Notes under the pieces: generated by a model
Seen by the model: the letters and a program-made list of their open reading frames with translations, nothing else
The model's database searches: none
Told to the model about the DNA's origin: nothing
Assembly: GCA_963848615.1 (NCBI GenBank)
Contig: CAWKEK010000005.1
Location: 48,007-112,006, forward strand
Origin: an uncultured Candidatus Babeliaceae bacterium
Lineage (GTDB): Bacteria > Babelota > Babeliae > Babelales > Babelaceae
Length of the DNA stretch: 64,000 nt
Direction of reading: 5' to 3'
Part shown: positions 7,601 through 28,012 of the stretch, one piece after another
Layout: each line of letters begins with the position of its first letter
Numbering within the stretch: the stretch's first letter is position 1
Program-made: the position numbers and the translations under genes

Positions 7601-8931
7601 CCCTTAATGGCGCCTGTCTTACAGCAGAGCTTGTTAAAAATATTTCACATGAAAAAAAAGAACCCGCATGGATGCTGGCCTTTCGCCAAGGGGCTCTGGA
7701 ACGGTTTCATGAGAAAAAAATCCCCAGCTGGGCTGCAGACCTGCGTGGTCTGGATTTATCTGATATCACCATGTATGTTAAGCCGTTGGTCAGTGAAAAG
7801 CGTTCATGGCAAGATATCCCACAAGATATAAAAACCACCTTTGAGACCCTGGGAATTCCCCAAGCAGAACAAAAATTTCTTGCCGGTGTCGGCGCACAAT
7901 TTGAATCTGAAGTTATTTATAAAAGTTTAAAACAGGAATGGGCAGACAAGGGTGTACTATTCTGTTCCATGGAAAGCGCCGTACGTGACCACCCAGAACT
8001 GGTTAAAAAATATTTTTCTACCGTTATTCCACCAGATGATAATATTTTTGCAGCGCTCAATTCTGCTTTTTGGTCAGGCGGTAGCTTTGTCTATGTGCCA
8101 CCACAGGTGCAGGTAACCATGCCACTACAGGCTTATTTTAGAATTAATCAACAGCAGATGGGTCAGTTTGAACGAACACTGATTATTGCAGATGTTGGTT
8201 CTTCGGTTCACTATGTTGAAGGCTGCAGTGCGCCGATCTATTCACGCGCCTCATTGCACAGTGCTGTGGTTGAAATTGTTGCGCTTGAAAATGCGCAGGT
8301 GCAATATACTACCATCCAAAACTGGGCACCCAATGTCTATAACTTGGTCACCAAGCGTGCCGTTGCCTACCGTAATGCACGGGTATCGTGGGTTGATGGC
8401 AACTTTGGCAGCGCCGTTACTATGAAATATCCCTGCGTTGTTCTTAAAGAACCGGGTGCACAGGGACAAGTATTGTCACTTGCTGTTGCAGGTGCGCATC
8501 AGCACCAAGATGCCGGTGCTAAAATGATTCATCTTGCTCCGTATACCAGCTCAACTATTGTCTCGAAATCTATTTCACAAAAAGGTGGTCGCGCGTCATA
8601 TCGCGGACTTGTTAAAGTCGTACCATCTGCGCATCATGTAAAATCACGCGTACAGTGCGATGCATTATTACTTGATGATTATTCACGTTCAGACACCTAC
8701 CCCACCGTGACAGTTGCCACGCATGATGCTGATATCGGCCATGAGGCCTCTGTTAGCAAAATTTCAGACGCGCAACTTGAATACCTTTGCAGTCGTGGGC
8801 TCACCCGTCAACAGGCTTTGGGCCTTGTTATGACCGGCTTTGTTAGTGCTTTTGTTGAACAGCTGCCTATGGAATATGCTGTTGAAATTAATCGCTTAAT
8901 CTCTGCAACCATGGAAGGCTCAATTGGATAA
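7597..8931 (+). CDS. sufB: Fe-S cluster assembly scaffold SufB
   Basis: 444 aa containing YVEGCSAP, NWAPNVYNLVTKR and the conserved C-terminal EASVSKISDAQLEYLCSRGL. Confidence 0.92.
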   Translation: MTLNGACLTAELVKNISHEKKEPAWMLAFRQGALERFHEKKIPSWAADLRGLDLSDITMYVKPLVSEKRSWQDIPQDIKTTFETLGIPQAEQKFLAGVGAQFESEVIYKSLKQEWADKGVLFCSMESAVRDHPELVKKYFSTVIPPDDNIFAALNSAFWSGGSFVYVPPQVQVTMPLQAYFRINQQQMGQFERTLIIADVGSSVHYVEGCSAPIYSRASLHSAVVEIVALENAQVQYTTIQNWAPNVYNLVTKRAVAYRNARVSWVDGNFGSAVTMKYPCVVLKEPGAQGQVLSLAVAGAHQHQDAGAKMIHLAPYTSSTIVSKSISQKGGRASYRGLVKVVPSAHHVKSRVQCDALLLDDYSRSDTYPTVTVATHDADIGHEASVSKISDAQLEYLCSRGLTRQQALGLVMTGFVSAFVEQLPMEYAVEINRLISATMEGSIG

Positions 8932-9502
8932 GATAGTCGATAGAATTATTTTACGTAATATCTCTGGCGTGCACGAATTTTTTGTAACGCATGATATGCA
9001 GATCACTATTTTTTTAAACACTATTTTGGCAACCGAACTAGAAATTCGTGTGATATGCAACACGCCCGGCACCCATGCAGCTATTGGCATTATACATAGT
9101 CAGAAAGCTCATGACACTCTTAAGCTCACCACGCTTCAACAACATCAGGCGCCACACACCAGCAGCACGGTTACCGTGAAAGGGGTTTTGTATGACCATG
9201 CAACCGTTAATTACGCCGGCAAAATTTACGTAAGTCCAGACGCCCGTCACACCAAAGCAGAACAAAAAAGTCATATGCTGTTGCTCAGCTCAACGGCTCA
9301 TGCCCAAGCAGTGCCAGCATTAGAAGTTTTAACAAACGATGTCCAGTGCAAGCATGGCAGCGCGATTGCGGGTATCAACCCGAACGTGCTTGAATACGTG
9401 GCCTCACGCGGTATATCCCCTGCAGATGCGCAAGATATCTTAGTGCAAAGTTTTTTTCTTTGTATGTTAGAAGACAAAACGGCAGAAGAATTTTTCAAAT
9501 AA
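8924..9502 (+). CDS. sufD: SufD-like protein (short, C-terminal beta-helix part only)
   Basis: TTG start overlaps sufB by 8 nt. PALEVLTNDVQCKHGSAIAGINPNVLEYVASRGI matches the SufB/D C-terminal signature. Only 192 aa. Confidence 0.7.
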   Translation: MDKIVDRIILRNISGVHEFFVTHDMQITIFLNTILATELEIRVICNTPGTHAAIGIIHSQKAHDTLKLTTLQQHQAPHTSSTVTVKGVLYDHATVNYAGKIYVSPDARHTKAEQKSHMLLLSSTAHAQAVPALEVLTNDVQCKHGSAIAGINPNVLEYVASRGISPADAQDILVQSFFLCMLEDKTAEEFFK

Positions 9503-17739: not shown

Positions 17740-20034
17740 TTATAGTTCTTGCAAAAAATCAGCAGAGATTTTTTTACTTTTTGCGCCAAACTGCACTGTT
17801 GCAAAGAGGGTATCTTCACCCCGTTCTTCAAGCTCTTTAATAGTGCCGATGCCATACGTAGCATGGCGTACACGTTGATTTATCCGTAAGCGCGCAGGCT
17901 CAGAAATCTCTTGCGAGCTTTCTTCGAGCTCTTGGTCAAAAGCAAACTCAGGGATCACCAATTTTGGTTGTGCCGCGTGCCCCACCTCCGCTCGTGGTGT
18001 GCCAAGCTTCAGCGCAGTCAAATCAGTGCGTTTCGCACCATTCATGGCGGAGCCTAAGTACCAGTCGCGTAAATAATTTTGGATATCGATAATGTTCCAT
18101 TGTGAACAATCGATGTTTCCAATCCAGTCAGGCAGTTCATGCACAAAGCGTGACGTGCGTTGGTCTGTCATGGTGCCAAAAACATAACGGTAACGAACAT
18201 GCGTAAGTAATAACCGTTCCCGTGCGCGGGTTATGCCGACGTATAATAAGCGGCGTTCTTCTTCAACCGTTTCGTTGGCAAAAGTTGCATGCGCACTGGG
18301 TAAAATATTTTCCTCAAGCCCCGTTAAAATAACGGTATCAAACTCAAGCCCTTTTGCAGCATGCAGTGTCATGAGTGATATATAATCATGCGTGGTTTCA
18401 TCAATGATATGTTCTTGCAGCAGGGCCACTTCTTCTAAAAAACGTTCTAGAGTAAAGCCCTCTTGCGTAGCAGTTTCTTGGCGCGAAAATGAGGCAATAG
18501 CATTAAGTAACTCTTTTACGTTGCCGATCTTTGCTTGTGCATCTTCTTGGGCAAAATGTTCTTGTAAGTATTCAAGATATGTTGTTTTTTCAATAAAATA
18601 GTCTGCAACTTTTTGTGCAGTGTCATTACGCGTAAAGCCATGAAAGAGATTAATAAACGAACGAACAGACTCTGCTTTTAAACCAGAGACAACTTTTTCA
18701 GTAAGCATATGTTGTAGAATCTGAAAGCCATTTAGAAAGGGCTGTTGGTCCCACAACTCAATTAATGTTTCAATAAATTTGTCCCCAAGGCCCCGGGAGG
18801 GCACATTGATAATGCGCGTGAGAGAAATGCGGTCAAAGGGGTTAACCACCAGACGCATGTAAGCAAGCAGATCTTTAATTTCTTGGCGGTCATAGAATTT
18901 TACGCCACCGATAATTTTATACGGAATCGAGCCACGAATAAGTGCTTCTTCAAGCGCGCGTGATTGATAATGTGACCGATATAACAATGCAATCGACTGC
19001 CCACTATTTTTTTTGATATGCATCGATGCTAGTTTGGCAACTACGTCACCTTCCTGGTAGCTTGAAGCACACTGTATCCGCCTGATGCGGTCGTTGCCGT
19101 TCTTTTTTGACCATAATTTTTTGGGGTTACGGGTACTATTATTTTCAATAATAGCATTTGCCGTATCTAAAATTGGCTGTACAGAACGGTAATTTTGCGC
19201 AATGGTGATAGTTGTTGTTTGAGGAAAGTCACGTTTAAAATAAACAATGTTTTGAATTGTTGCGCCGCGCCAGGAATAAATAGATTGGTCCTCGTCGCCG
19301 ACAACACACAATGAATCGATACAAAACTGTTTGGCATCGTCTTGGGTTATCTGTTGCAGCAGCGCATGCTGCACTAAATTAGTGTCTTGATATTCATCAA
19401 CCAGCACGTGGCGTACTTTGTTTTGAAAATCTTTTTTAAATTCTGCGTTCGTTCTAAAAAGTTTTAATACTTCCAAAAGTAAATCATCAAAATCAAGGCA
19501 ATGGGCGTTTGTTTTTTCACGTTCATACACGTTACACAGCTCTTCTAATAAGGGATCGGAGATCCCTAATAAACTATTTTTATGCTGTGATATCGCACCG
19601 GCTAATGCTTTAACTGTTACTTTTTTTACCAGGCCGTACTTATTAATTATAGCCTTGAGCATTTTTTCTTTGTCGTCTTCGTCAAGAATACTAAACTCTG
19701 GGTGCGCTATATGGTGGCGATAGATTTTTAATAACCGCAAACAATATGAATGGAACGTGCCGACATAAGGAAGTTGATATCCAGGTAAAAAATGGGCGAT
19801 ACGTTCTTTCATCTCACGTGCAGCCTTGTTAGTAAACGTAAGGGCTACAATCGAGTAAGGGGTGACGTTGTGCATGAGCATAAGGTTTGTCATGCGTGCG
19901 GTAATCACGCGCGTCTTGCCCGAACCTGCTCCGGCACACACAAGCAATACGCCATCTTTTTGTGCTACCGCCTGTTGCTGTTCTGGATTTAATTGCGTTT
20001 CGAAAAATGTTTGGAAATTGGTGTGTGTGTTCAT
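17740..20034 (-). CDS. uvrD: ATP-dependent DNA helicase, UvrD/PcrA/Rep family
   Basis: Motif I AGAGSGKT, motif II LVDEYQDTN, TLHAAKGLEFD, YVGITRARERL, and a C-terminal Tudor-like RVRHATYGIGTI. Confidence 0.92.
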   Translation of the reverse strand: MNTHTNFQTFFETQLNPEQQQAVAQKDGVLLVCAGAGSGKTRVITARMTNLMLMHNVTPYSIVALTFTNKAAREMKERIAHFLPGYQLPYVGTFHSYCLRLLKIYRHHIAHPEFSILDEDDKEKMLKAIINKYGLVKKVTVKALAGAISQHKNSLLGISDPLLEELCNVYEREKTNAHCLDFDDLLLEVLKLFRTNAEFKKDFQNKVRHVLVDEYQDTNLVQHALLQQITQDDAKQFCIDSLCVVGDEDQSIYSWRGATIQNIVYFKRDFPQTTTITIAQNYRSVQPILDTANAIIENNSTRNPKKLWSKKNGNDRIRRIQCASSYQEGDVVAKLASMHIKKNSGQSIALLYRSHYQSRALEEALIRGSIPYKIIGGVKFYDRQEIKDLLAYMRLVVNPFDRISLTRIINVPSRGLGDKFIETLIELWDQQPFLNGFQILQHMLTEKVVSGLKAESVRSFINLFHGFTRNDTAQKVADYFIEKTTYLEYLQEHFAQEDAQAKIGNVKELLNAIASFSRQETATQEGFTLERFLEEVALLQEHIIDETTHDYISLMTLHAAKGLEFDTVILTGLEENILPSAHATFANETVEEERRLLYVGITRARERLLLTHVRYRYVFGTMTDQRTSRFVHELPDWIGNIDCSQWNIIDIQNYLRDWYLGSAMNGAKRTDLTALKLGTPRAEVGHAAQPKLVIPEFAFDQELEESSQEISEPARLRINQRVRHATYGIGTIKELEERGEDTLFATVQFGAKSKKISADFLQEL

Positions 20035-20159
20035 AGTTAAATCAGTTTACCGTAATAATATTATTGCGGCAAAATAATTATACGTTGATTTATTAATAAA
20101 CTTTTGTAGGCTTAATATACTATTTTTTCAATAATTATCTTTATATATATTAGGGCAAA

Positions 20160-21110
20160 ATGCGTAGAACTTTACAGATAACTTTATCTATACTTATTTT
20201 TGTTTCATTAATAAATAGCCTTCACGCGCGCGTCGACATATCATCTTGGAGTCATTATAAAATTATTGGTTATATTGTGAAAGCCTTAAGTAAGCCAGTA
20301 ACAAAAGGGCTGTTGGTTGATTCAAGGCCATTAACTATATCAAATCGATTACTACTGTATGGCCCTCCAGGCAATGGAAAGACCACATTAGCCCGGGAGA
20401 TAGCAGTTGCCGCACAGTGTGAATTCGTTCATATACGAGCATCATCGATAGTGACCAAGTATCAGGGCAGTGGCTCTGAAAATATGCAAAAAGAGTTGAT
20501 GAAAGCATTTGATAAAATTCTTGAAGGTGATCGCCCTGTCGTTATATTTATAGATGAAGTTGATGCCATAGCTGCGACGGGGAATGGGGAATCATCGCGG
20601 CTTGAATATACTAATGCGGCTCAAGAATTGTGGCAATATCTAGATACCTGTAAGAATGATCCGCGTGTTTTTATAATTTGTGCCACTAACCAGTATGAAA
20701 AATTAAATTTGGCTTTTGTGAGTCGTTTTCCAGAGCGGCAGAGATTAAAAATTGATCAACCAGATAAGGAAATCAGGAAAACTGTTTTATTAGGCCTCAT
20801 GGAAAGATATGATTTTACATTATATGACCGTATTGTAGATGATTTGGCACAGCATAGTAATGGCATGAGTATTCGTGAATTAGAAAATTTTATTTATGAG
20901 CTTAAAGTAAGCTTTGAATTTGAAGCAATATTATCTGATAAAGAGGTGATAGAAAAGATAAAAGATTACCCGCGTGGATATAAAGACCCCAATGAGATAT
21001 CTAAAAAGCCTTCCAAAAGGGATATCTACGATAAAATTCACATGCTTTCTGCGATTGTTTCTATGGTGAATAATGGAAGAATAATCGCAAAAGAATTTGG
21101 ATTTATATAA
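20160..21110 (+). CDS. Classical-clade AAA+ ATPase with N-terminal TM anchor or signal
   Basis: Leader LQITLSILIFVSLINSLHA. Walker A LLLYGPPGNGKTTLA, Walker B VIFIDEVDAI, second region of homology ICATNQYEKLNLAFVSRF. Confidence 0.85.
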   Translation: MRRTLQITLSILIFVSLINSLHARVDISSWSHYKIIGYIVKALSKPVTKGLLVDSRPLTISNRLLLYGPPGNGKTTLAREIAVAAQCEFVHIRASSIVTKYQGSGSENMQKELMKAFDKILEGDRPVVIFIDEVDAIAATGNGESSRLEYTNAAQELWQYLDTCKNDPRVFIICATNQYEKLNLAFVSRFPERQRLKIDQPDKEIRKTVLLGLMERYDFTLYDRIVDDLAQHSNGMSIRELENFIYELKVSFEFEAILSDKEVIEKIKDYPRGYKDPNEISKKPSKRDIYDKIHMLSAIVSMVNNGRIIAKEFGFI

Positions 21111-22116
21111 CTCCGACGGACTTTTTGTGTATAATTTTTTTGAGTTCTTCAATTATTTGCTCAAAAAGTTTTTCATCATTTTGTGCGATTTGCAAGTCAA
21201 CCGATAGGTTATCATATTTTTGCTTTTGTAGATTTCTTTCTTCCACAATCTTAATCGGAAAAATATGGCATTGCAATTCAATTGGTGTGTAAATATCTCT
21301 CATCCTTTTATCAATTTCAAAAAATATTTTTTTTTGGCGTTCTATATCACTAAAAAGCATATTTTTACACAAAATTAATCTTGTTTTCTCATTTTCGTAT
21401 TTTTTCAATATTTTTTTACAATCTTCTAATGTTTTTTGTTGCAGGCAGTTGATTGCACTTTCAAAGTATATCCTATTCAGCGTATCTATTTTTTGTGCAT
21501 TTATTTCTAATTTTTTAAGTGCAAGTTTAATTTCAGCTTCTTTGACCATAAAATCAACTTTTACCATAACGTTTCGACGTTGGGCGTAACTTATCCACAA
21601 AATCATTTCTATGAATTTATCTATATTAATATGAAGCTTATCATCTAGGGAATTGATAAGAAATTCATTTTTAATAGATTCAAATTCCTCAGTGCGAATT
21701 TTATATTTCAAAAATAAATTTTGCAATTTTTCTGCTTCGTTAATAATGGTATCTTTTAACGAATCATTTTCATTTTGGCGATCTTTTATTAAATTTTCAT
21801 TATAAAAATTAATATTTAATAAATCGCTAATAGTGAGATTATCAATCTCTTCTAAATATTCCTTTTCGTAATTACAGAAATCAGAATGAAATGACGCAAC
21901 TAATAAATCTGCATTTGCAACAAAGCCAAGATTGAATTTAATTGCTTCTAAAGAATCGCTTTTGCTCACGGGAATGCTTACCATGTCGAAATATTCGAAC
22001 CAATTTTCTTTAAAATAATTTACATCCTGAGCAACTATATTTTTTATTATGACTAGAGATGATAAAATCATTAATGAGATTTTAATAATCTTGTTAGTTG
22101 ATTGCTTGAGGTTCAC
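21103..22116 (-). CDS. Membrane-anchored coiled-coil protein, paralogue 1
   Basis: Shares NYFKENWFEYFDM..LEAIKFNLGFVA and MILWISYAQRRNVMVKVDF with 22168..23250. Very AT-rich. The 3' end overlaps the AAA gene by 8 nt. Confidence 0.6.
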   Translation of the reverse strand: MNLKQSTNKIIKISLMILSSLVIIKNIVAQDVNYFKENWFEYFDMVSIPVSKSDSLEAIKFNLGFVANADLLVASFHSDFCNYEKEYLEEIDNLTISDLLNINFYNENLIKDRQNENDSLKDTIINEAEKLQNLFLKYKIRTEEFESIKNEFLINSLDDKLHINIDKFIEMILWISYAQRRNVMVKVDFMVKEAEIKLALKKLEINAQKIDTLNRIYFESAINCLQQKTLEDCKKILKKYENEKTRLILCKNMLFSDIERQKKIFFEIDKRMRDIYTPIELQCHIFPIKIVEERNLQKQKYDNLSVDLQIAQNDEKLFEQIIEELKKIIHKKSVGVI

Positions 22117-22167
22117 AAGATTCCTTTTAATATGAAAGAATAGACTTAATTTTTATTTGAGCAAAAA

Positions 22168-23250
22168 TTATGAATAGCCCAAGCGATTACAATAATTTTC
22201 AAAACTTTCTGCTTTTTCCGCTCGTGCCTTCTGTTCTATTATTTTTTTTGTTTCATTAATTATTTTCTCATAATTTATTTTATCGTTTTCAGCTGTTCGC
22301 AATTTCGCGCATAATTCAATGTTTTCATTTAATAATCGATTTTTTTTTGAGGTATCTTGCCCTTGTTGAAACATATCTTCCAGGCCGTGATCATAGTGTT
22401 TATTTTCGATTTGCTCTAAGCTTTTTTTGTTAAGAGTTAAATCATTGAGAAACTTACTCTCATTCTCCATTATTTTTGCGTTTATTTCTTCTAGGGTTTT
22501 TAATGATTTTTTACATTCCTCTGAGGATACTTTTTGTGTGAGATTGATTATTTTTTCAAAATGTTTTTTATTAATTTCTTCTACTTTTTGTTTATTTGCT
22601 TGTAGCGTTATGTTTACAGATTCGATGTTTTTTTCATTGATTATTAAATCTAACTTTGTCATAACAATACGCCGCTGGAAGTAGCTTATCCATAAAATCA
22701 TTTGAATATATTTCAATACAGGTGATAAATATTTTGCATCAGCATTTTTATAGTTTGTGATGAAATCATCCTTAATGAGATCAAATTCTTCAGCTGAAAG
22801 TCCATGTAATTTATACAGCTCTTTTAGTTGATCTTCTTGATTAAGAAGTTGGAGTTCTAATATATTTTTTTTAGCTTGATCATTTTGAATTTTATTTTCA
22901 TCACTAATAATATCGCACATGATGGATTGTTTATCCCTGTTATGATTTTTTTCCAGCATTTCGGCTAAAGCGTTATTAAACCAATCATCGAACTCGGTTT
23001 CAATTAAAGCAAGTATTTGATCAAAATGTGCTACAACGCCAAGATTGAATCTTATTGTCTCTAAAGAATAACCTTCGTTTACTACAATATTCTCCATATC
23101 CAAAAAGTTAGACCAGTTTTCATTAAAATATTGTAAATCTTCAGCCGGAATATTTCTTACGATAACCATTAGAAAAAATATTATTATTTTTTTAATGTTT
23201 TTAAGTAATTGTCTATTCTTTACGAAATCCTTTTTAAATTTTTTTTGCAT
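22168..23250 (-). CDS. Membrane-anchored coiled-coil protein, paralogue 2
   Basis: QYFNENWSNFLDM..LETIRFNLGVVA and MILWISYFQRRIVMTKLDL. Lys/Glu/Asn-rich heptad-like sequence. Confidence 0.6.
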   Translation of the reverse strand: MQKKFKKDFVKNRQLLKNIKKIIIFFLMVIVRNIPAEDLQYFNENWSNFLDMENIVVNEGYSLETIRFNLGVVAHFDQILALIETEFDDWFNNALAEMLEKNHNRDKQSIMCDIISDENKIQNDQAKKNILELQLLNQEDQLKELYKLHGLSAEEFDLIKDDFITNYKNADAKYLSPVLKYIQMILWISYFQRRIVMTKLDLIINEKNIESVNITLQANKQKVEEINKKHFEKIINLTQKVSSEECKKSLKTLEEINAKIMENESKFLNDLTLNKKSLEQIENKHYDHGLEDMFQQGQDTSKKNRLLNENIELCAKLRTAENDKINYEKIINETKKIIEQKARAEKAESFENYCNRLGYS

Positions 23251-23301
23251 AACAGCTTTTCGAATTTTTCAAATTTTTTTTAACGGTGCTTTTATAGATG
23301 A

Positions 23302-23592
23302 TCATCCTGTTGCAATTTGTATTGTTTGTTCAAAAGGTTTATTTTCCCTAGTTCTTTTCATTAACTGCACTTTTGCATGTCTTATTTCCTTTGAATCCAA
23401 CATCAAAAAATATTTATCAGTTGTATCTCCATTTAATGAAAACTCCTCAGTTTTTTTATTGAATTTACAATAAGCAAATACTTTTTTTATTTTAGCATCT
23501 TGCTTACCTTTTTCATTAATGAAAATTTCGCCATAGATTTGAGTTTCAATTTTATATTCAACATAAACATCATTTTCTATTAATTTATTCAT
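23302..23592 (-). CDS. Small cytoplasmic hypothetical protein
   Basis: Start set at MNKLIENDVYVEY (ATG at 23592). The longer ORF to 23664 reads through a duplicated fragment of the gene's own 3' part. Confidence 0.45.
   Translation of the reverse strand: MNKLIENDVYVEYKIETQIYGEIFINEKGKQDAKIKKVFAYCKFNKKTEEFSLNGDTTDKYFLMLDSKEIRHAKVQLMKRTRENKPFEQTIQIATG
23392..23434. repeat. 43-bp direct repeat, copy 1 (inside 23302..23592)
   Basis: TGAATCCAACATCAAAAAATATTTATCAGTTGTATCTCCATTT has 1 mismatch to 23615-23657. Confidence 0.85.
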
Positions 23593-23614
23593 GATAAAAT
23601 ACATAAGGTTCCTA

Positions 23615-23657
23615 TGAATCCAACACCAAAAAATATTTATCAGTTGTATCTCCATTT
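23615..23657. repeat. 43-bp direct repeat, copy 2 (orphan gene fragment)
   Basis: In the gene's frame it reads NGDTTDKYFLVLDS*, with stop codons immediately upstream. Confidence 0.85.
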
Positions 23658-23795
23658 TTTGCATTCTATTAACATATCATGCGTAGCTAAATCAAAATCC
23701 AATGGATCATTTTTATTAATCGCGCTGATCATATGATTTAATTGTGTTTCAAAAAAGATGAAAATATTTTTTTTATTCGTGGTTTAATAATTATA

Positions 23796-24308
23796 TTATT
23801 TTCTTAGGTTGAAGGCAGTAGACAAATCAAACTTTGAAAGTTGTTCAGAAACAGTGCCTATAAATCTTCTAACATCTTGCGGATTCAATAAGGGTGAATT
23901 GGGGATATCGCCCTCTGCAGGGTCAAAACCATCTGCGCCGACTGAGTTTATTTCTCTTCTGGCTTCAAGTCTTTTTTCTGTCGCATCTAAAGTTTTAATG
24001 CTTGCAGTTGCTTGTTGTATCTCAAGAACCGTTTGCTCTAAATTTTTTATTTGTTGAGCTTCTTTTTTTCTCAATTCATGTCGCTGGTTTTCTAGATCAG
24101 TTTTTTGTTTTCTGAGCATATCTAGAAGTGCTTCTACTTGTTCCAAATGAGCTTTATAGAGGCTTGCATCTGCCCATTCTTGTGATCCGGGCGAAAAAGT
24201 TTTTTCAGGTGATTCATCTGAATCCATTGCATATGCTTTTGAAATGATCGATAGTGTGGTCAAAAAGATGATGAGCTTGTATGTTTTCACGTTTGTCCCT
24301 GTGCACAT
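23796..24308 (-). CDS. Secreted coiled-coil protein
   Basis: Leader YKLIIFLTTLSIISKAYA, then a heptad-rich central region (LEQVEALLDMLRKQKTDLENQRHELRKKEAQQIKNLEQ). Confidence 0.55.
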   Translation of the reverse strand: MCTGTNVKTYKLIIFLTTLSIISKAYAMDSDESPEKTFSPGSQEWADASLYKAHLEQVEALLDMLRKQKTDLENQRHELRKKEAQQIKNLEQTVLEIQQATASIKTLDATEKRLEARREINSVGADGFDPAEGDIPNSPLLNPQDVRRFIGTVSEQLSKFDLSTAFNLRK

Positions 24309-24394
24309 TGTGGCTTAAATACATGGTGATACAATAAGAGGCGCAAAAAGCGCCTCTTAGTATGATAATGAAAATGAGCTTTTTTTGCTACTTT

Positions 24395-25336
24395 TTATTT
24401 AGAACTTGACCCGCTGGAATCGGCAGTAGACATTAAGCCAAAAAGCCATGCTAAAGCTGAAGGTGTCGCTGCAGTTTGCGCTCCATCGCTTTGTTTTACT
24501 ACCACTGTTGTCGCATTACAGATTGCATCAATCTCATCTTGTGGAACGCCGTTTTGTTGCAATTCCTCTATAAGCGCAGCTTTTTGATCTTCAAGTTTTC
24601 TGGTTGCCTGCATACGGCTTTCGAGTGAATCGCTTCGCTCGCGGGTGAATTTAACTTTTTCTGAAGTTTCTCGCTCTGCTGTTAATTTTGCATCTAATGC
24701 AGCTTCAAATTCACGTTTTGCGGTTTCAAATTGTTCTAGTGCTTGTCTTGCTAATTCACTTTTAGTTGCTGAATTTTCAAGGGCATCTTGTTCTGCAGCT
24801 TTAATTGCGTTTAAAGCCTGTTGCTTGCTCATAATTTCTTTACGCGCAGCATCGACTTTTGGACTTAAACTTTGAACAGACTTTTTCAGTTTTTCAACCA
24901 GAGCCGCTTGTTGGCGGATGAGCCTTTCTTGATGGGCCGCCTGTTCAGCCTCAAATTCTTGTCTTTGGCGACGTTTTTTTTCAGCCTGCCTTTTAATTTT
25001 GTCTGCTTTTTGTGTTATAAGCACGGTTTTAGTAAGATCTTCAACCTCATCATCACTGGTGACAATAGCTACATCTGTATCAAAATCTAATTCAGGAAAT
25101 TGATCAGGAGCTTGGGCTGTTGCAAGAGCAACAACTGCACCAGCAACCTGTTCTTGACTTGCGCCGAGCCTGTCAGCAGCATCGGCTATTTGACCCTGTG
25201 TAGCGGCCAAAACGGTTTTGTCTTCTTTGAGTAGCTTTTGATAATAGTTTAGCAGGCTTCGCGCCTTTTGCTGCATCTGCGTAATTCTCGCTGAGGTCCA
25301 TCGCTTGGAGAGTAAGTTCGAGACATGCCTGTGCAA
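24395..25336 (-). CDS. Ala/Glu/Gln-rich coiled-coil protein (start uncertain, possibly 25368)
   Basis: The ORF starts at TTG 25336. An ATG at 25368 followed by an A6 run opens either MKKYLALALLTCTG (lipoprotein-like, a different frame) or, with one extra A, MKKISSAGTTYLHRHVSNLL in the main frame. Confidence 0.55.
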   Translation of the reverse strand: MHRHVSNLLSKRWTSARITQMQQKARSLLNYYQKLLKEDKTVLAATQGQIADAADRLGASQEQVAGAVVALATAQAPDQFPELDFDTDVAIVTSDDEVEDLTKTVLITQKADKIKRQAEKKRRQRQEFEAEQAAHQERLIRQQAALVEKLKKSVQSLSPKVDAARKEIMSKQQALNAIKAAEQDALENSATKSELARQALEQFETAKREFEAALDAKLTAERETSEKVKFTRERSDSLESRMQATRKLEDQKAALIEELQQNGVPQDEIDAICNATTVVVKQSDGAQTAATPSALAWLFGLMSTADSSGSSSK

Positions 25337-25453
25337 GTAAGTAGTGCCAGCGCTAGATATTTTTTCATAAATTCTCCCTAATAAGTAGTACGGTTTATTT
25401 TGGGATAGAATTGCCTTCTATCCCAGGAAATCTACTATATGGGAAATTTAAAT

Positions 25454-26581
25454 TCAAGGATTTTGTGATGGTAAGTTCTTTTTCCACTCAACCAAAAATG
25501 TTTTAAGGGGATCAAGACCATGTTCTGTGGTAGCAGATACGAGTATATGTGGTTGATAATTTCTAAACAAAAAGTCTGACATGTCAGGGTTAGGCAGTTT
25601 GTCGACTTTATTAAAGACATAAACCATTGGCTTATCACTTGCGCCTAATTCTTCAAGAACATCATGCACAACGGTGATATGTTCCTGCCAATTTTTATCT
25701 GAAGCGTCGATTACTTGGAGCAACAGATGGGCATGTTGTAATTCAGAAAGGGTAGATTTAAATGCCTCAATAAGTTTATGTGGTAGCTGTTGAATAAAAC
25801 CGACCGTGTCAGAAATTAATCCAACTTTTTTCTTTTCAATAAAAAGTTCACGCGTAGTTGTATCAAGCGTTGCAAACAGTTTGTCTTGCGCAAGCACCGA
25901 ACTTTTGGTGAGCGCATTAAGAATGGTCGATTTACCAGCGTTGGTGTACCCAATTAAGCACATAAGGGGCAGTTCAGAACCAATTCTTTGTTTACGTTGA
26001 GTTTCACGGACTTTTTGAAGTTTTTCTAAATCACGGCGCAACTTGAGCATAAGATGTTCAATATGCTGTGTCTCTTTTTCTTTTTGCGTTTCACCAGGGC
26101 CACGGGTACCGATACGGCCACCTTGTTGTGACATATACAGCCCGCGTCCGGTTAAGCGCGATTTTTGGTGCTGTAACATAGCAAGGCCAACCTGGGTTTT
26201 CCCCTCTGCTGACTGTGCACCTTTTTCAAAAATTTCTAAGATAAGGTCTGTTCGATCAAAAACATGGCACTGGAGTATACGGCTTAAGTTACGTTCCTGT
26301 TGGGGGGAAAGCGCGTCAGAAAATATGACCTCTTGGATTTCCTCTTTTTTGACTAATTCAAGAACATCTTCAAGCTTACCCAGGGTTAAAAAGTTTGCCG
26401 AGTCGATGCTGCGTAATTTGATCGTGATGAAATGTTCAGTGCTGACACCATTAGATGCCGCAAGATTTTTAAATTCTTGGTAATATGATTCAATGTCAGA
26501 AATAGGGTTAAAAGGCGAGTGGATGCCAATTAACAACGTTTTTGGTTGTTCAATAGGAATAATTGATGCCGGTTTGGTCAT
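25454..26581 (-). CDS. hflX: GTPase HflX
   Basis: HflX N-terminal domain, G1 GYTNAGKST, G3 DTVGFI, G4 NKVD. Confidence 0.92.
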   Translation of the reverse strand: MTKPASIIPIEQPKTLLIGIHSPFNPISDIESYYQEFKNLAASNGVSTEHFITIKLRSIDSANFLTLGKLEDVLELVKKEEIQEVIFSDALSPQQERNLSRILQCHVFDRTDLILEIFEKGAQSAEGKTQVGLAMLQHQKSRLTGRGLYMSQQGGRIGTRGPGETQKEKETQHIEHLMLKLRRDLEKLQKVRETQRKQRIGSELPLMCLIGYTNAGKSTILNALTKSSVLAQDKLFATLDTTTRELFIEKKKVGLISDTVGFIQQLPHKLIEAFKSTLSELQHAHLLLQVIDASDKNWQEHITVVHDVLEELGASDKPMVYVFNKVDKLPNPDMSDFLFRNYQPHILVSATTEHGLDPLKTFLVEWKKNLPSQNP

Positions 26582-26692
26582 TACCGTTTACTCATTTTTA
26601 GGGTATAATACTATAAATATATACTATAAGTTTAGCGGTCATAGAGAAGTTTTACAAATTTATTAGAAGTTTAATGGCGTTGAAGGACCTGT

Positions 26693-28012
26693 ATGTTTGG
26701 CTCATTAACAGAAAAATTTTCTGCTTTATTCTCACGATTTTCTTCATCAAAAGTGTCTCAGCAAACGGTTGATGATGCTATGCAGATGGTTAAAAATACC
26801 CTGCTTGAAGCCGATGTGCCGTTTGATGTTGTTACCCATTTTGTTCAGCACGTGCAGCAGGACCTAATCGGTAAAAAAGTCTTTTCTTCATTAAAGCCAG
26901 CTGAGTTGGTGATGAAGTCGGTGCATGAACGTATTGTTCAGCTTTTGGGGGGCAAACAGAGTGCTACCACATTCTCGTTCCAGATACCCAGCGTTATTGT
27001 CATGGCCGGGCTCCAGGGTTCTGGTAAAACGACTACGCTTGCAAAATTGGCCCATCTGATTCAAAAAGATGCCGCAAAGCGGAATAAAAAAAGAAAAATA
27101 GTGGTTTGCTCAGTTGATTATTATCGTCCTGCAGCTCGTGAACAGCTTGAAGTGTTAGCAAAAAATATTGGGGTTGATTACTACACCCCAGAAGCAACTG
27201 ATCCGGTAACGGCAGCACAGCAGGCTGTTCAGTATGCCCAAAAAAATCAGTATGAGTACTGTTTTATCGATACAGCAGGGCGCCTGCATGTTGACCAAGA
27301 GCTTTTGGGTGAGCTTTCTGGGATTATTAAACGTGTTAAGCCAACCTATACTTTTTTAGTCATTGACGGCATGATCGGTCAGGAATCGTTGCGTGTTGCC
27401 CAAGCGTTTGAAGCGATTATTAATGCAACCGGCGTCATTTTAAGCAAAATGGATGGGGATACCCGCGGTGGCGCTGCATTTGCCTGTTATTATATGGTTA
27501 AAAAACCGGTAATTTTTATGGGTACGGGTGAAAAAGTTGACGATTTAGAATATTTCAACCCAGAACGTATTGCCAACCGCATTATTGGCCTTGGTGATAT
27601 GCATACGCTTATTGAAAAGGCTGAAGAAAAAATTAAGGTGTCAGACCAGCAAGATCTTCAAAAAGCTTTTAATAGTGGCAAGCTCACGTTACAGGATTTT
27701 GCAAAACAGTTGGATATGATGAGTTCTTTAGGGAGCTTATCGTCACTTATGAAATATATTCCGGGGATTCCGGGGATAAAGGTCGAGCCGGCTCAACTTG
27801 AAAAGGGTGAGCGGGAAATGAAAAAATTTAAGGCGATTATCAGTTCGATGACGCTTAAAGAGCGACTTAATGCACGTATCATCAATGAACCACGCCGGAA
27901 ACGGATTGCTGCAGGTTCAGGGACTACGCCGCAAGATATCACCTTATTGTTAGAAAGATTTGAACAAAGTCAGCAATTTGTTAAAATCTTAAAGAGAAGA
28001 CCCCATTTTTAA
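26693..28012 (+). CDS. ffh: Signal recognition particle protein Ffh
   Basis: G domain GLQGSGKTTT, DTAGR, SKMDGD, and a Met-rich M domain. Confidence 0.95.
   Translation: MFGSLTEKFSALFSRFSSSKVSQQTVDDAMQMVKNTLLEADVPFDVVTHFVQHVQQDLIGKKVFSSLKPAELVMKSVHERIVQLLGGKQSATTFSFQIPSVIVMAGLQGSGKTTTLAKLAHLIQKDAAKRNKKRKIVVCSVDYYRPAAREQLEVLAKNIGVDYYTPEATDPVTAAQQAVQYAQKNQYEYCFIDTAGRLHVDQELLGELSGIIKRVKPTYTFLVIDGMIGQESLRVAQAFEAIINATGVILSKMDGDTRGGAAFACYYMVKKPVIFMGTGEKVDDLEYFNPERIANRIIGLGDMHTLIEKAEEKIKVSDQQDLQKAFNSGKLTLQDFAKQLDMMSSLGSLSSLMKYIPGIPGIKVEPAQLEKGEREMKKFKAIISSMTLKERLNARIINEPRRKRIAAGSGTTPQDITLLLERFEQSQQFVKILKRRPHF

Follow-up and report, generated by a model that had tools for sequence, protein, structure and literature searches.

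A strain-specific, low-G+C block of putatively exported helical proteins and an immunity-like gene in the variable hflX-uvrD interval of a Babeliaceae genome

Introduction

Candidatus Babelota, the phylum also known as Dependentiae or TM6, comprises bacteria that live as parasites inside protist cells; they are widespread, hardly any has been cultured, and how they attack their hosts is largely unknown. The present analysis concerns G000, a metagenome-assembled genome from the family Babeliaceae within this phylum (989,870 bp in 27 contigs, 39.6% guanine plus cytosine (G+C), rated 66% complete), and specifically a 64,000-nt stretch of it, called here the window (G000:C5:48007-112006), to which all coordinates below refer unless a locus name precedes them. 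Between hflX and uvrD, the window holds a block at about 20160-23790 that consists of an AAA+ ATPase gene (AAA316), two paralogous genes for putatively exported helical proteins (A337 and B360), and a small gene (C100). The reading favored here, to which we would assign a probability of roughly 0.55, is that the block represents an accessory cassette, specific to this strain and encoding secreted proteins, that was drawn from a flexible gene pool of the toxin/immunity type and inserted at a hot spot between hflX and uvrD. For comparison, 261 Dependentiae genomes were surveyed (G000 and 260 others), with G001, G002, G003, and G004 serving as the congeners.

Polymorphic toxin/immunity cassettes, together with orphan immunity genes, were reportedly described by Zhang, Aravind and colleagues in 2012. 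As in such cassettes, Dependentiae genomes contain large exported proteins that have varied N-terminal parts but one C-terminal domain, followed by one to three small cytoplasmic proteins of the family to which C100 belongs (the C family). In addition, orphan copies of the small gene are found elsewhere, and the loci are AT-rich and lie at differing sites in close relatives. The likeness has limits, however: the C-terminal domain and the small protein have no Pfam or PDB family, the window has the small gene only, and A337 and B360 are without a counterpart in the known scheme.

For A337 and B360 themselves, two other groups of proteins invite comparison. Like the Inc proteins of Chlamydia and the coiled-coil effectors of Legionella, they are long-helix, lineage-specific, and fast-evolving proteins of an intracellular bacterium, and they are predicted to be exported. 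However, they lack a bilobed hydrophobic domain, their export would proceed through Sec, no homology to these effectors was detected, and their fold matches are generic (Z of 11.0 at most). The binary and tripartite alpha-helical pore-forming toxins of the ClyA family, some members of which carry Sec signal peptides, are likewise adjacent, paralogous, elongated all-alpha proteins of about 340-360 aa. Unlike these toxins, A337 and B360 have no hydrophobic head, no Pfam match at E <=1, and, in the 50 top-ranked structural matches for the full model or for that of the N-terminal half, no ClyA-type protein, although absence from such a list does not exclude kinship.

A final comparison is with Chromulinavorax destructans, in which signal peptides have been assigned to 44% of coding sequences, a set that is described as enriched in ORFans (PMC6561590). 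In G000, 341 of the 890 open reading frames (ORFs) begin in a signal-peptide-like way according to a crude rule. Given how common signal peptides are in both genomes, two orphan exported helical proteins at a variable locus are ordinary for the lineage. These ORFans and the A337/B360 pair are alike in being exported (by prediction, in the case of the pair), family-less, presumed to act on the host, and encoded by a small-genome intracellular parasite of protists; the A/B family differs in having only three known members, and no sequence relationship to C. destructans proteins was found, no search aimed at one having been made.

The interval between hflX and uvrD

The block contains the following features.

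20160..21110, plus strand: AAA316, an AAA+ ATPase (PF00004, 96.9 bits) with a signal-peptide or anchor-like N-terminus; G+C 36.3%
21103..22116, minus strand: A337, predicted exported all-alpha protein, paralogue 1; 337 aa, GTG start with AAGGA about 5 nt upstream
21327..21335, minus strand: A9 tract inside A337; an extra A, apparent in another public assembly, leaves products of 266 + 66 aa
22168..23250, minus strand: B360, predicted exported all-alpha protein, paralogue 2; 360-aa ORF
23302..23604, minus strand: C100, small cytoplasmic protein of an immunity-like family; start MYFIM, 100 aa
23609..23657, minus strand: 49-nt duplicated fragment of C100, matching 23386-23434 at 96% identity but in another reading frame and terminated by a stop

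The genes 3' of hflX form a same-strand string that converges on the AAA ATPase gene, just as had been described from the sequence. The stop regions of AAA316 and A337 overlap by 8 nt, and the spacers C100-B360 and B360-A337 are 51 nt each.

The gene order ffh-hflX...uvrD is syntenic among the relatives, and the genes that bound the interval are well conserved in the genus: HflX is 87-93% identical to the congener proteins (93% for G002), uvrD is 79-88% identical, and identities of 86-93% are the rule for core proteins within the genus. The distance between hflX and uvrD, on the other hand, is 5.4 kb in G000 but shorter in the congeners (G002, 4.0 kb; G004, 2.4 kb; G003, 2.2 kb); in other genera, it is about 0.2 kb (G008) or 4.2 kb (G009). 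The intervals of G002, G003, and G004, like the portion of the G001 interval that could be compared, are without a homologue of A337, B360, or C100. The check on relatives that was proposed in the original prediction thus finds A337 and B360 absent from the interval in all four congeners examined, G001 being represented in part, and the scenario that would have made them conserved syntenic core genes is excluded, as they are missing from 260 of 260 genomes as well as from the congener sites. Each congener interval (L013:4452-8339 in G002, L014:4634-6837 in G004, and L015:9304-11387 in G003) instead contains three to five ORFs that are helix-rich and begin with a signal peptide, and these are barely similar to one another or to the two resident genes of the G000 interval, D170 and gene E (E313). 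The hflX-uvrD interval is therefore a hypervariable hot spot, and the variable, unrelated contents of the congener intervals indicate that A337, B360, and C100 are an insert into a fast-evolving locus for secreted proteins.

The two resident genes lie between the block and hflX.

23796..24308, minus strand: D170, a signal-peptide protein resident in the hflX-uvrD interval; native G+C of 38%
24395..25368, minus strand: gene E, which takes the place that the first secreted-protein gene 3' of hflX has in the congeners; its 313-aa body is not in the frame of its signal peptide (ATG at 25368)

D170 has no clear homologue in the congener intervals. The 5' region of gene E (gene and 5' region together, 24395-25453, minus strand), in comparison, has an inverted repeat (GGGATAGAA / TTCTATCCC) and a signal peptide in common with G002 and G004, while its mature part is unrelated to that of the congener counterparts. 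An extra base just 3' of the signal peptide puts the 313-aa body of the G000 gene out of frame. Consequently, of the two further exported coiled-coil proteins that had been proposed at 23796-25368, D170 does carry a signal peptide, but that of gene E is off-frame from the body.

C100 and a toxin-like C-terminal domain

C100 links the block to other loci. A profile search finds 19 copies of the C family in 11 of the 261 genomes. In four genomes, a C-family gene comes directly after a gene for a large signal-peptide protein (827 aa in G002, 1446 aa in G007, 600 aa in G123, and 411 aa in G124). The N-terminal parts of these four proteins differ, but their last approximately 135-160 residues are 40-54% identical and define a shared C-terminal domain with invariant GE.CR, H.F, W.RL..GD, and LL.HEY.E positions. 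The loci that encode the domain include L028:4252-7049 (G002), L029:6206-11258 (G007), L031:6074-8898 (G123), L033:5018-7339 (G124), and L041:3503-4588 (G169).

When a profile of the domain was used as the query, matches were found in 24 of the 261 genomes. Seven of the eight best matches have a C-family gene within 100 nt downstream; the eighth, which has no C-family match, starts 151 nt into its contig. The closest subfamily of the domain is followed directly by one to three copies of the C-family protein of about 100 aa. Correspondingly, among the 18 C-family copies outside G000, seven are directly after the domain and five are further tandem copies in the same arrays. Three more lie in other toxin-like arrays: one is in G123 after a 737-aa exported protein, and two are in G206, where a protein that matches EndoU_bacteria at 44.1 bits, above the cut-off of 25.3, precedes them together with a 144-aa ORF. 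The remaining copies are two orphans in clusters of the polysaccharide type and one on a 1.2-kb contig. Searches of Pfam and PDB returned no match for the domain or for the C-family protein. From this arrangement, the C-terminal domain and the C family look like a polymorphic toxin/immunity pair, apparently one new to description; within the literature library that was searched, there was no paper joining Dependentiae with a polymorphic toxin, nor one joining Babeliales with a coiled-coil.

The C-terminal domain itself is absent from 20000-25500 and from the whole of assembled G000. Since no copy is present in the assembled 66% of the genome, C100 is regarded as an orphan immunity-like gene. 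A remnant of the toxin-like domain upstream of C100, suggested by visual inspection, was also considered and rejected: when all 273 peptides translated from the six frames of 20000-25500 were subjected to hmmsearch with filters off, the lowest E was 0.56, and this was elsewhere in the region. Assignment of C100 to UPF0231 (PF06062) was likewise discarded, as its scores of 24.7 and 24.1 bits fall below the cut-off of 25 and a match at E <=0.01 was obtained for just 1 of the 12 members of its family.

The small gene and the duplicated fragment, both noted in the original prediction, are real. However, the alignment of 12 family members favors the MYFIM start (23604), so that the product is more likely 100 aa than the 96 aa first proposed. 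The second copy of the 49-nt fragment lies 223 nt upstream of the original, and three-frame translation indicates that it reads in another frame and ends at a stop.

AAA316 and accessory islands in relatives

The subfamily to which AAA316 belongs is patchy, occurring in 5 of the 41 genomes of the family, including G000. In G002, two copies of this type (53% and 46% identical to AAA316) lie on either side of the gene pair for the 827-aa protein and its C-family neighbor. All four genes belong to an island of 8.3 kb that is bordered by an ABC ATPase gene and by glyA, two genes that are about 440 bp apart in G000. The nearest relative of C100 is also within the genus, and AAA316 and C100 are 53-58% identical to the genes of the G002 island, far below the 86-93% of core proteins; the divergence of these genes thus does not match that of the genomes. 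In G030, ATPases of the same kind are found on both sides of three ORFs. The first encodes an exported protein of 1085 aa that matches EndoU weakly (21.2 bits), the second has 130 aa, and the third, of 344 aa, is helical, begins with a signal peptide, and has 28% G+C. The 344-aa ORF is not homologous to A337 and B360 (hhalign with the A/B profile, probability of 2%). Tandem arrays of two to three copies of the ATPase subfamily were also seen in G002 and G003.

The block at 20160-23790 thus resembles accessory islands that are present at other sites in relatives, in its list of parts but not in their order, and AAA316 is probably part of the same accessory block. An AAA ATPase that is putatively exported would make sense only in the host cytosol.

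The paralogues A337 and B360

The alignment of A337 with B360 extends over 325 aa at 33% identity (E 4e-45), and both proteins contain the YF(K/N)ENW...FNLG and MILWISY.QRR.VM.K blocks; the claim of two colinear paralogues of 337 and 360 aa with two conserved blocks is thus confirmed. They are also real genes, because they remain open over 337 and 360 codons in DNA of about 27% G+C, in which an estimated 8% of random codons would be stops from base composition, and because the conserved blocks are common to the paralogues and to their one relative, P0004.

In contrast, the N-termini do not resemble the membrane anchors that had been proposed. In each of the three family members, a basic N-terminus is followed by a hydrophobic stretch of only 10-12 residues and then by IVA|QD (A337), IPA|ED (B360), or ISS|FD (P0004), with small residues at -1 and -3. 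The D(L/V)xYF(K/N)ENW block starts directly after this putative cleavage point. A second hydrophobic segment was not found, the maximum 19-residue hydropathy past residue 40 being 1.08-1.28, and a crude signal-peptide rule is positive for both proteins. The single short hydrophobic stretch, the small residues at -1 and -3, and the lack of a later segment argue for cleavable Sec signal peptides rather than anchors, and the mature proteins would be soluble.

An AF2 model of B360 is all-alpha (pLDDT 75.8, pTM 0.66), with helices of 42, 59, 45, and 64 residues, and the conserved N-terminal half alone is modeled somewhat more confidently (pLDDT 80.0, pTM 0.70). Although the original prediction spoke of heptad sequence, a crude Fourier scan finds that few 42-residue windows of A337 or B360 peak near 3.5 residues. 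Because there is no sustained signal of this period, "helical bundle" is a safer description than "coiled coil." The proposed Foldseek comparison was made with the models: the full B360 model has 0 matches at E <=0.001 in PDB and in BFVD, and the model of the N-terminal half, which carries the conserved blocks, has 0 at that threshold in PDB. VIA-align of B360 against 48,161 chains reached a best Z of 11.0, which involves residues 239-352 only, and the N-terminal conserved half reached 9.2; the partners are generic helical hairpins, and both values are within the range that the tool gives for unrelated helical proteins. A search of the ESM Atlas gave no usable match, and Pfam, PHROGs, NCBIfam, and PADLOC have nothing above noise for A337, B360, or C100. 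A prediction of an A337-B360 complex scored 0.00, with a mark of 0.34, values that speak neither for nor against a complex. The statement that no function can be assigned still holds at the level of evidence, although C100 has now been traced to an immunity-like family that is associated with toxins.

The A/B family is exceedingly small. A phmmer search of 1,835,955,588 representative sequences returned four proteins at E <=0.001, three of which are the genes of the window itself from another assembly. The fourth and sole foreign relative is P0004, a 233-aa protein on a 999-bp contig (E 3e-9, 27-34% identity). Word-indexed protein searches gave only P0004 and the window's own proteins, and no further paralogue is present in G000. 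A/B is an orphan family of three known members. Within the Dependentiae, a profile search finds it absent from 260 of the 260 other genomes, apart from one marginal coiled-coil match of 15 bits (E 0.008). Scans of contigs with the family alignment gave 417 viral, 599 genome, and 484 metagenome pattern matches, none of which was confirmed. The viral homologues suggested as a possibility were thus looked for and not found, either by sequence in viral contigs or by fold in BFVD. The paralogues, at 33% identity, are far more diverged than core proteins at 86-93%, which argues that the A/B duplication is far older than the genus, and acquisition of the pair would be more parsimonious than its loss in every relative.

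Two observations concern sequence runs in these genes. In the other public assembly, where the genes are on a 2738-bp contig, A337 is split into 266 + 66 aa (P0002 and P0003), consistent with one extra A in the A9 tract; a true variant and an assembly error are indistinguishable here. Phase variation at a contingency locus was rejected as an explanation, as an A9 tract is expected in A337 from composition (P 0.38), and B360, which has eight runs of >=7 (P 0.004), has no run of >=10, too little for such a locus.

Base composition

The very low G+C content of the island was confirmed. The 1-kb bins across 21001-24000 have G+C of 0.278, 0.277, and 0.280, as compared with 0.321 for the next lowest of the 64 window bins, 0.452 for the sufB bin (8001-9000), and 39.6% for the genome; within the island, 200-nt windows vary from 0.215 to 0.325, and the intergenic spacers have 20-26%. 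The right edge is sharp, with a rise from 0.25-0.28 to 0.395 at about 23800, whereas the left edge at about 21100 is gradual and fades across the 3' half of the AAA gene. Among 3702 windows of 2.5 kb genome-wide (mean 0.394, standard deviation (sd) 0.036), the minimum, 0.268, is this island, and only four segments of the genome, the island included, are below 0.31. The other three (C12:33501-39750, C21:33501-36000, and C11:83251-87250) comprise a glycosyltransferase-like cluster with N-terminal anchors, a set of five tandem small signal-peptide paralogues, and a segment without a long ORF.

Most of this bias resides in the proteins. In A337 and in B360 alike, 54% of the residues are Ile, Lys, Leu, Glu, or Asn. 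Among 737 ORFs of >=150 aa, the G+C at second codon positions (GC2) of A337 and B360 (0.18 and 0.19; mean 0.367) ranks 1 and 2, and that at first positions (GC1) ranks 12 and 30. At third positions (GC3), both have 0.25, which ranks 36 and 35 (mean 0.342, sd 0.071). The G+C expected from protein sequence and the codon usage of the genome is 29.5% for A337 and 30.8% for B360, the two lowest values of 527 ORFs, and the observed values are 26.8% and 27.9%. This leaves a codon-level deficit of -2.7 and -2.9 points, about 1.2 sd (sd 2.3) and just short of the 5% quantile (-3.2). Amino-acid composition thus explains about 10 of the 13 missing points and codon choice only about 3. The deficit of C100, at -6.5 points, is stronger.

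Since the deficit is mostly a matter of amino-acid composition, it is weak evidence of foreign origin. The original inference from composition, that the island is foreign or subject to a strong mutational bias, therefore stands insofar as an accessory, acquired nature is supported, but composition is not its main support.

Origin and role of the block

These results can be assembled into the following model. The block at about 20160-23790 would have reached its site by transfer or relocation from a flexible pool of toxin, immunity, and secreted-protein genes; the link to this pool is provided by the relatives of C100 and by the AAA316 subfamily, whose members border loci of this type in two further genomes. 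A337 and B360 would be soluble, elongated, all-alpha proteins that leave the cytoplasm through Sec. They would most likely serve as interaction factors peculiar to the lineage, with the periplasm, the cell surface, or the protist host as their site of action. C100 would be an orphan copy of an immunity-like protein that elsewhere in the Dependentiae is coupled to a toxin-like C-terminal domain. The low G+C may be attributed mainly to proteins rich in Ile, Lys, Leu, Glu, and Asn, combined with the modest AT bias usual for accessory genes.

Several observations weigh against this model. There is no tRNA within 19 kb and no flanking repeat beyond short matches at chance level, and library scans gave no integrase or transposase match. 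The GC3 of A337 and B360, at the 5th percentile, fits long residence as well as it fits transfer. No genome places an A/B gene next to a C-family gene, so that the link of A337 and B360 to the toxin/immunity pool is their adjacency to C100 in G000 alone. As the genome is only 66% complete, the toxin that partners C100 may be encoded in a portion absent from the assembly. The signal-peptide call consists of a reading by eye plus a crude rule. Finally, given the split at the A9 tract in one assembly, A337 may be decaying or variable.

One alternative is that A337 and B360 are working parts of a conflict system, either as periplasmic immunity proteins in an orphan array with C100 or as a two-component secreted helical toxin with its antidote nearby. 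They do lie directly downstream of C100 across the two 51-nt spacers, AAA+ relatives of the flanking ATPase flank toxin-like loci in G002 and G030, and the G030 locus has the same order of a large exported protein, a small ORF, and a low-G+C helical ORF with a signal peptide. Furthermore, tandem exported paralogues of about 350 aa are reminiscent of binary and tripartite alpha-helical pore formers. However, the helical G030 ORF is not a homologue, A337 and B360 have no hydrophobic head segment, and Pfam, PADLOC, PHROG, and NCBIfam hold no matching toxin or immunity family. More than 300 mature residues would be large for an immunity protein, and no genome ties the A/B family to a toxin gene. 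We consider this unlikely. An extended form of the idea, in which AAA316-A337-B360-C100 would be a mobile conflict cassette with C100 as the antidote of an undescribed toxin, A337 and B360 as a new pair of Sec-exported helical toxins or host effectors traveling with it, and the signal-bearing ATPase as a dedicated partner of such loci, is rated slightly less probable still. A quite different suggestion is that A337 and B360 are the decaying, nonfunctional remains of an old insertion drifting toward AT. Decay is evident nearby in the frameshifted gene E and in the 49-nt remnant of C100, the toxin partner of C100 was not found in assembled G000, and one public assembly has A337 broken at A9. Yet both ORFs are intact despite the high frequency of stops expected among random codons, the motif blocks have been kept across three members at 27-34% identity, and the AF2 models are confident from only three sequences; decay is accordingly judged improbable.

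The remaining alternatives concern the provenance of the DNA. If the genes had arrived recently from an AT-rich organism or virus that does not belong to the phylum (a giant virus, the protist host, or another endosymbiont, for instance), the low G+C would be a signature of the donor. Such a transfer could account for the lowest-G+C 2.5-kb window of the genome, for the absence of the genes from all relatives, and for the codon deficit of -6.5 in C100. However, no viral relative was found by sequence or fold, 15 billion proteins yielded only the one 233-aa relative on its 999-bp contig, the deficit is mostly amino-acid composition, and the nearest relatives of C100 and AAA316 are within the same genus, so that such a donor is very improbable. 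Finally, a foreign low-G+C fragment might have been misjoined into the contig during assembly or binning. G000 is a metagenome-assembled genome of 27 contigs, and the island genes are on a separate 2738-bp contig elsewhere. Among public sequencing runs, no RNA run was listed as containing the sampled words; one DNA run contains 6% of them, and its short, near-identical contigs cover parts of the island and of hflX but bridge no junction. Nevertheless, the contig is syntenic on both sides, where a misjoin would sooner break synteny, gene E matches the congeners in its 5' region, A337 and AAA316 have 8 nt in common at their stops, and C100, which is inside the low-G+C stretch, is, like AAA316, closest to congener genes. 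In the same run, which is possibly the source sample, the depth of the island (2.1-3.1) is similar to that of hflX (2.5), which is weak evidence against a misjoin. Such an artefact seems very unlikely.

If the block is indeed an accessory cassette from the toxin/immunity pool, it is ordinary accessory baggage for a lineage of Dependentiae parasites, and the locus illustrates the turnover of their secreted repertoire, with different exported proteins in each close relative at the same hflX-uvrD site. The by-product of the analysis may be weightier: the coupling between the C-terminal domain, in 24 genomes, and the small protein, in 11 of the 261, has the appearance of a polymorphic toxin/immunity system. 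Should the block prove to be a conflict cassette, it would be the first description of warfare or host attack of the polymorphic-toxin type in the Dependentiae. The value of A337 and B360 lies in a clean negative, as their low G+C is mostly protein composition and they bear no mark beyond those of lineage-specific secreted ORFans.

Noncoding signals

An Rfam search of 19000-26800 gave no match. A scan for promoters and terminators detected no terminator-like site; promoter-like sites numbered 27, as compared with 24.8 in shuffled sequences.

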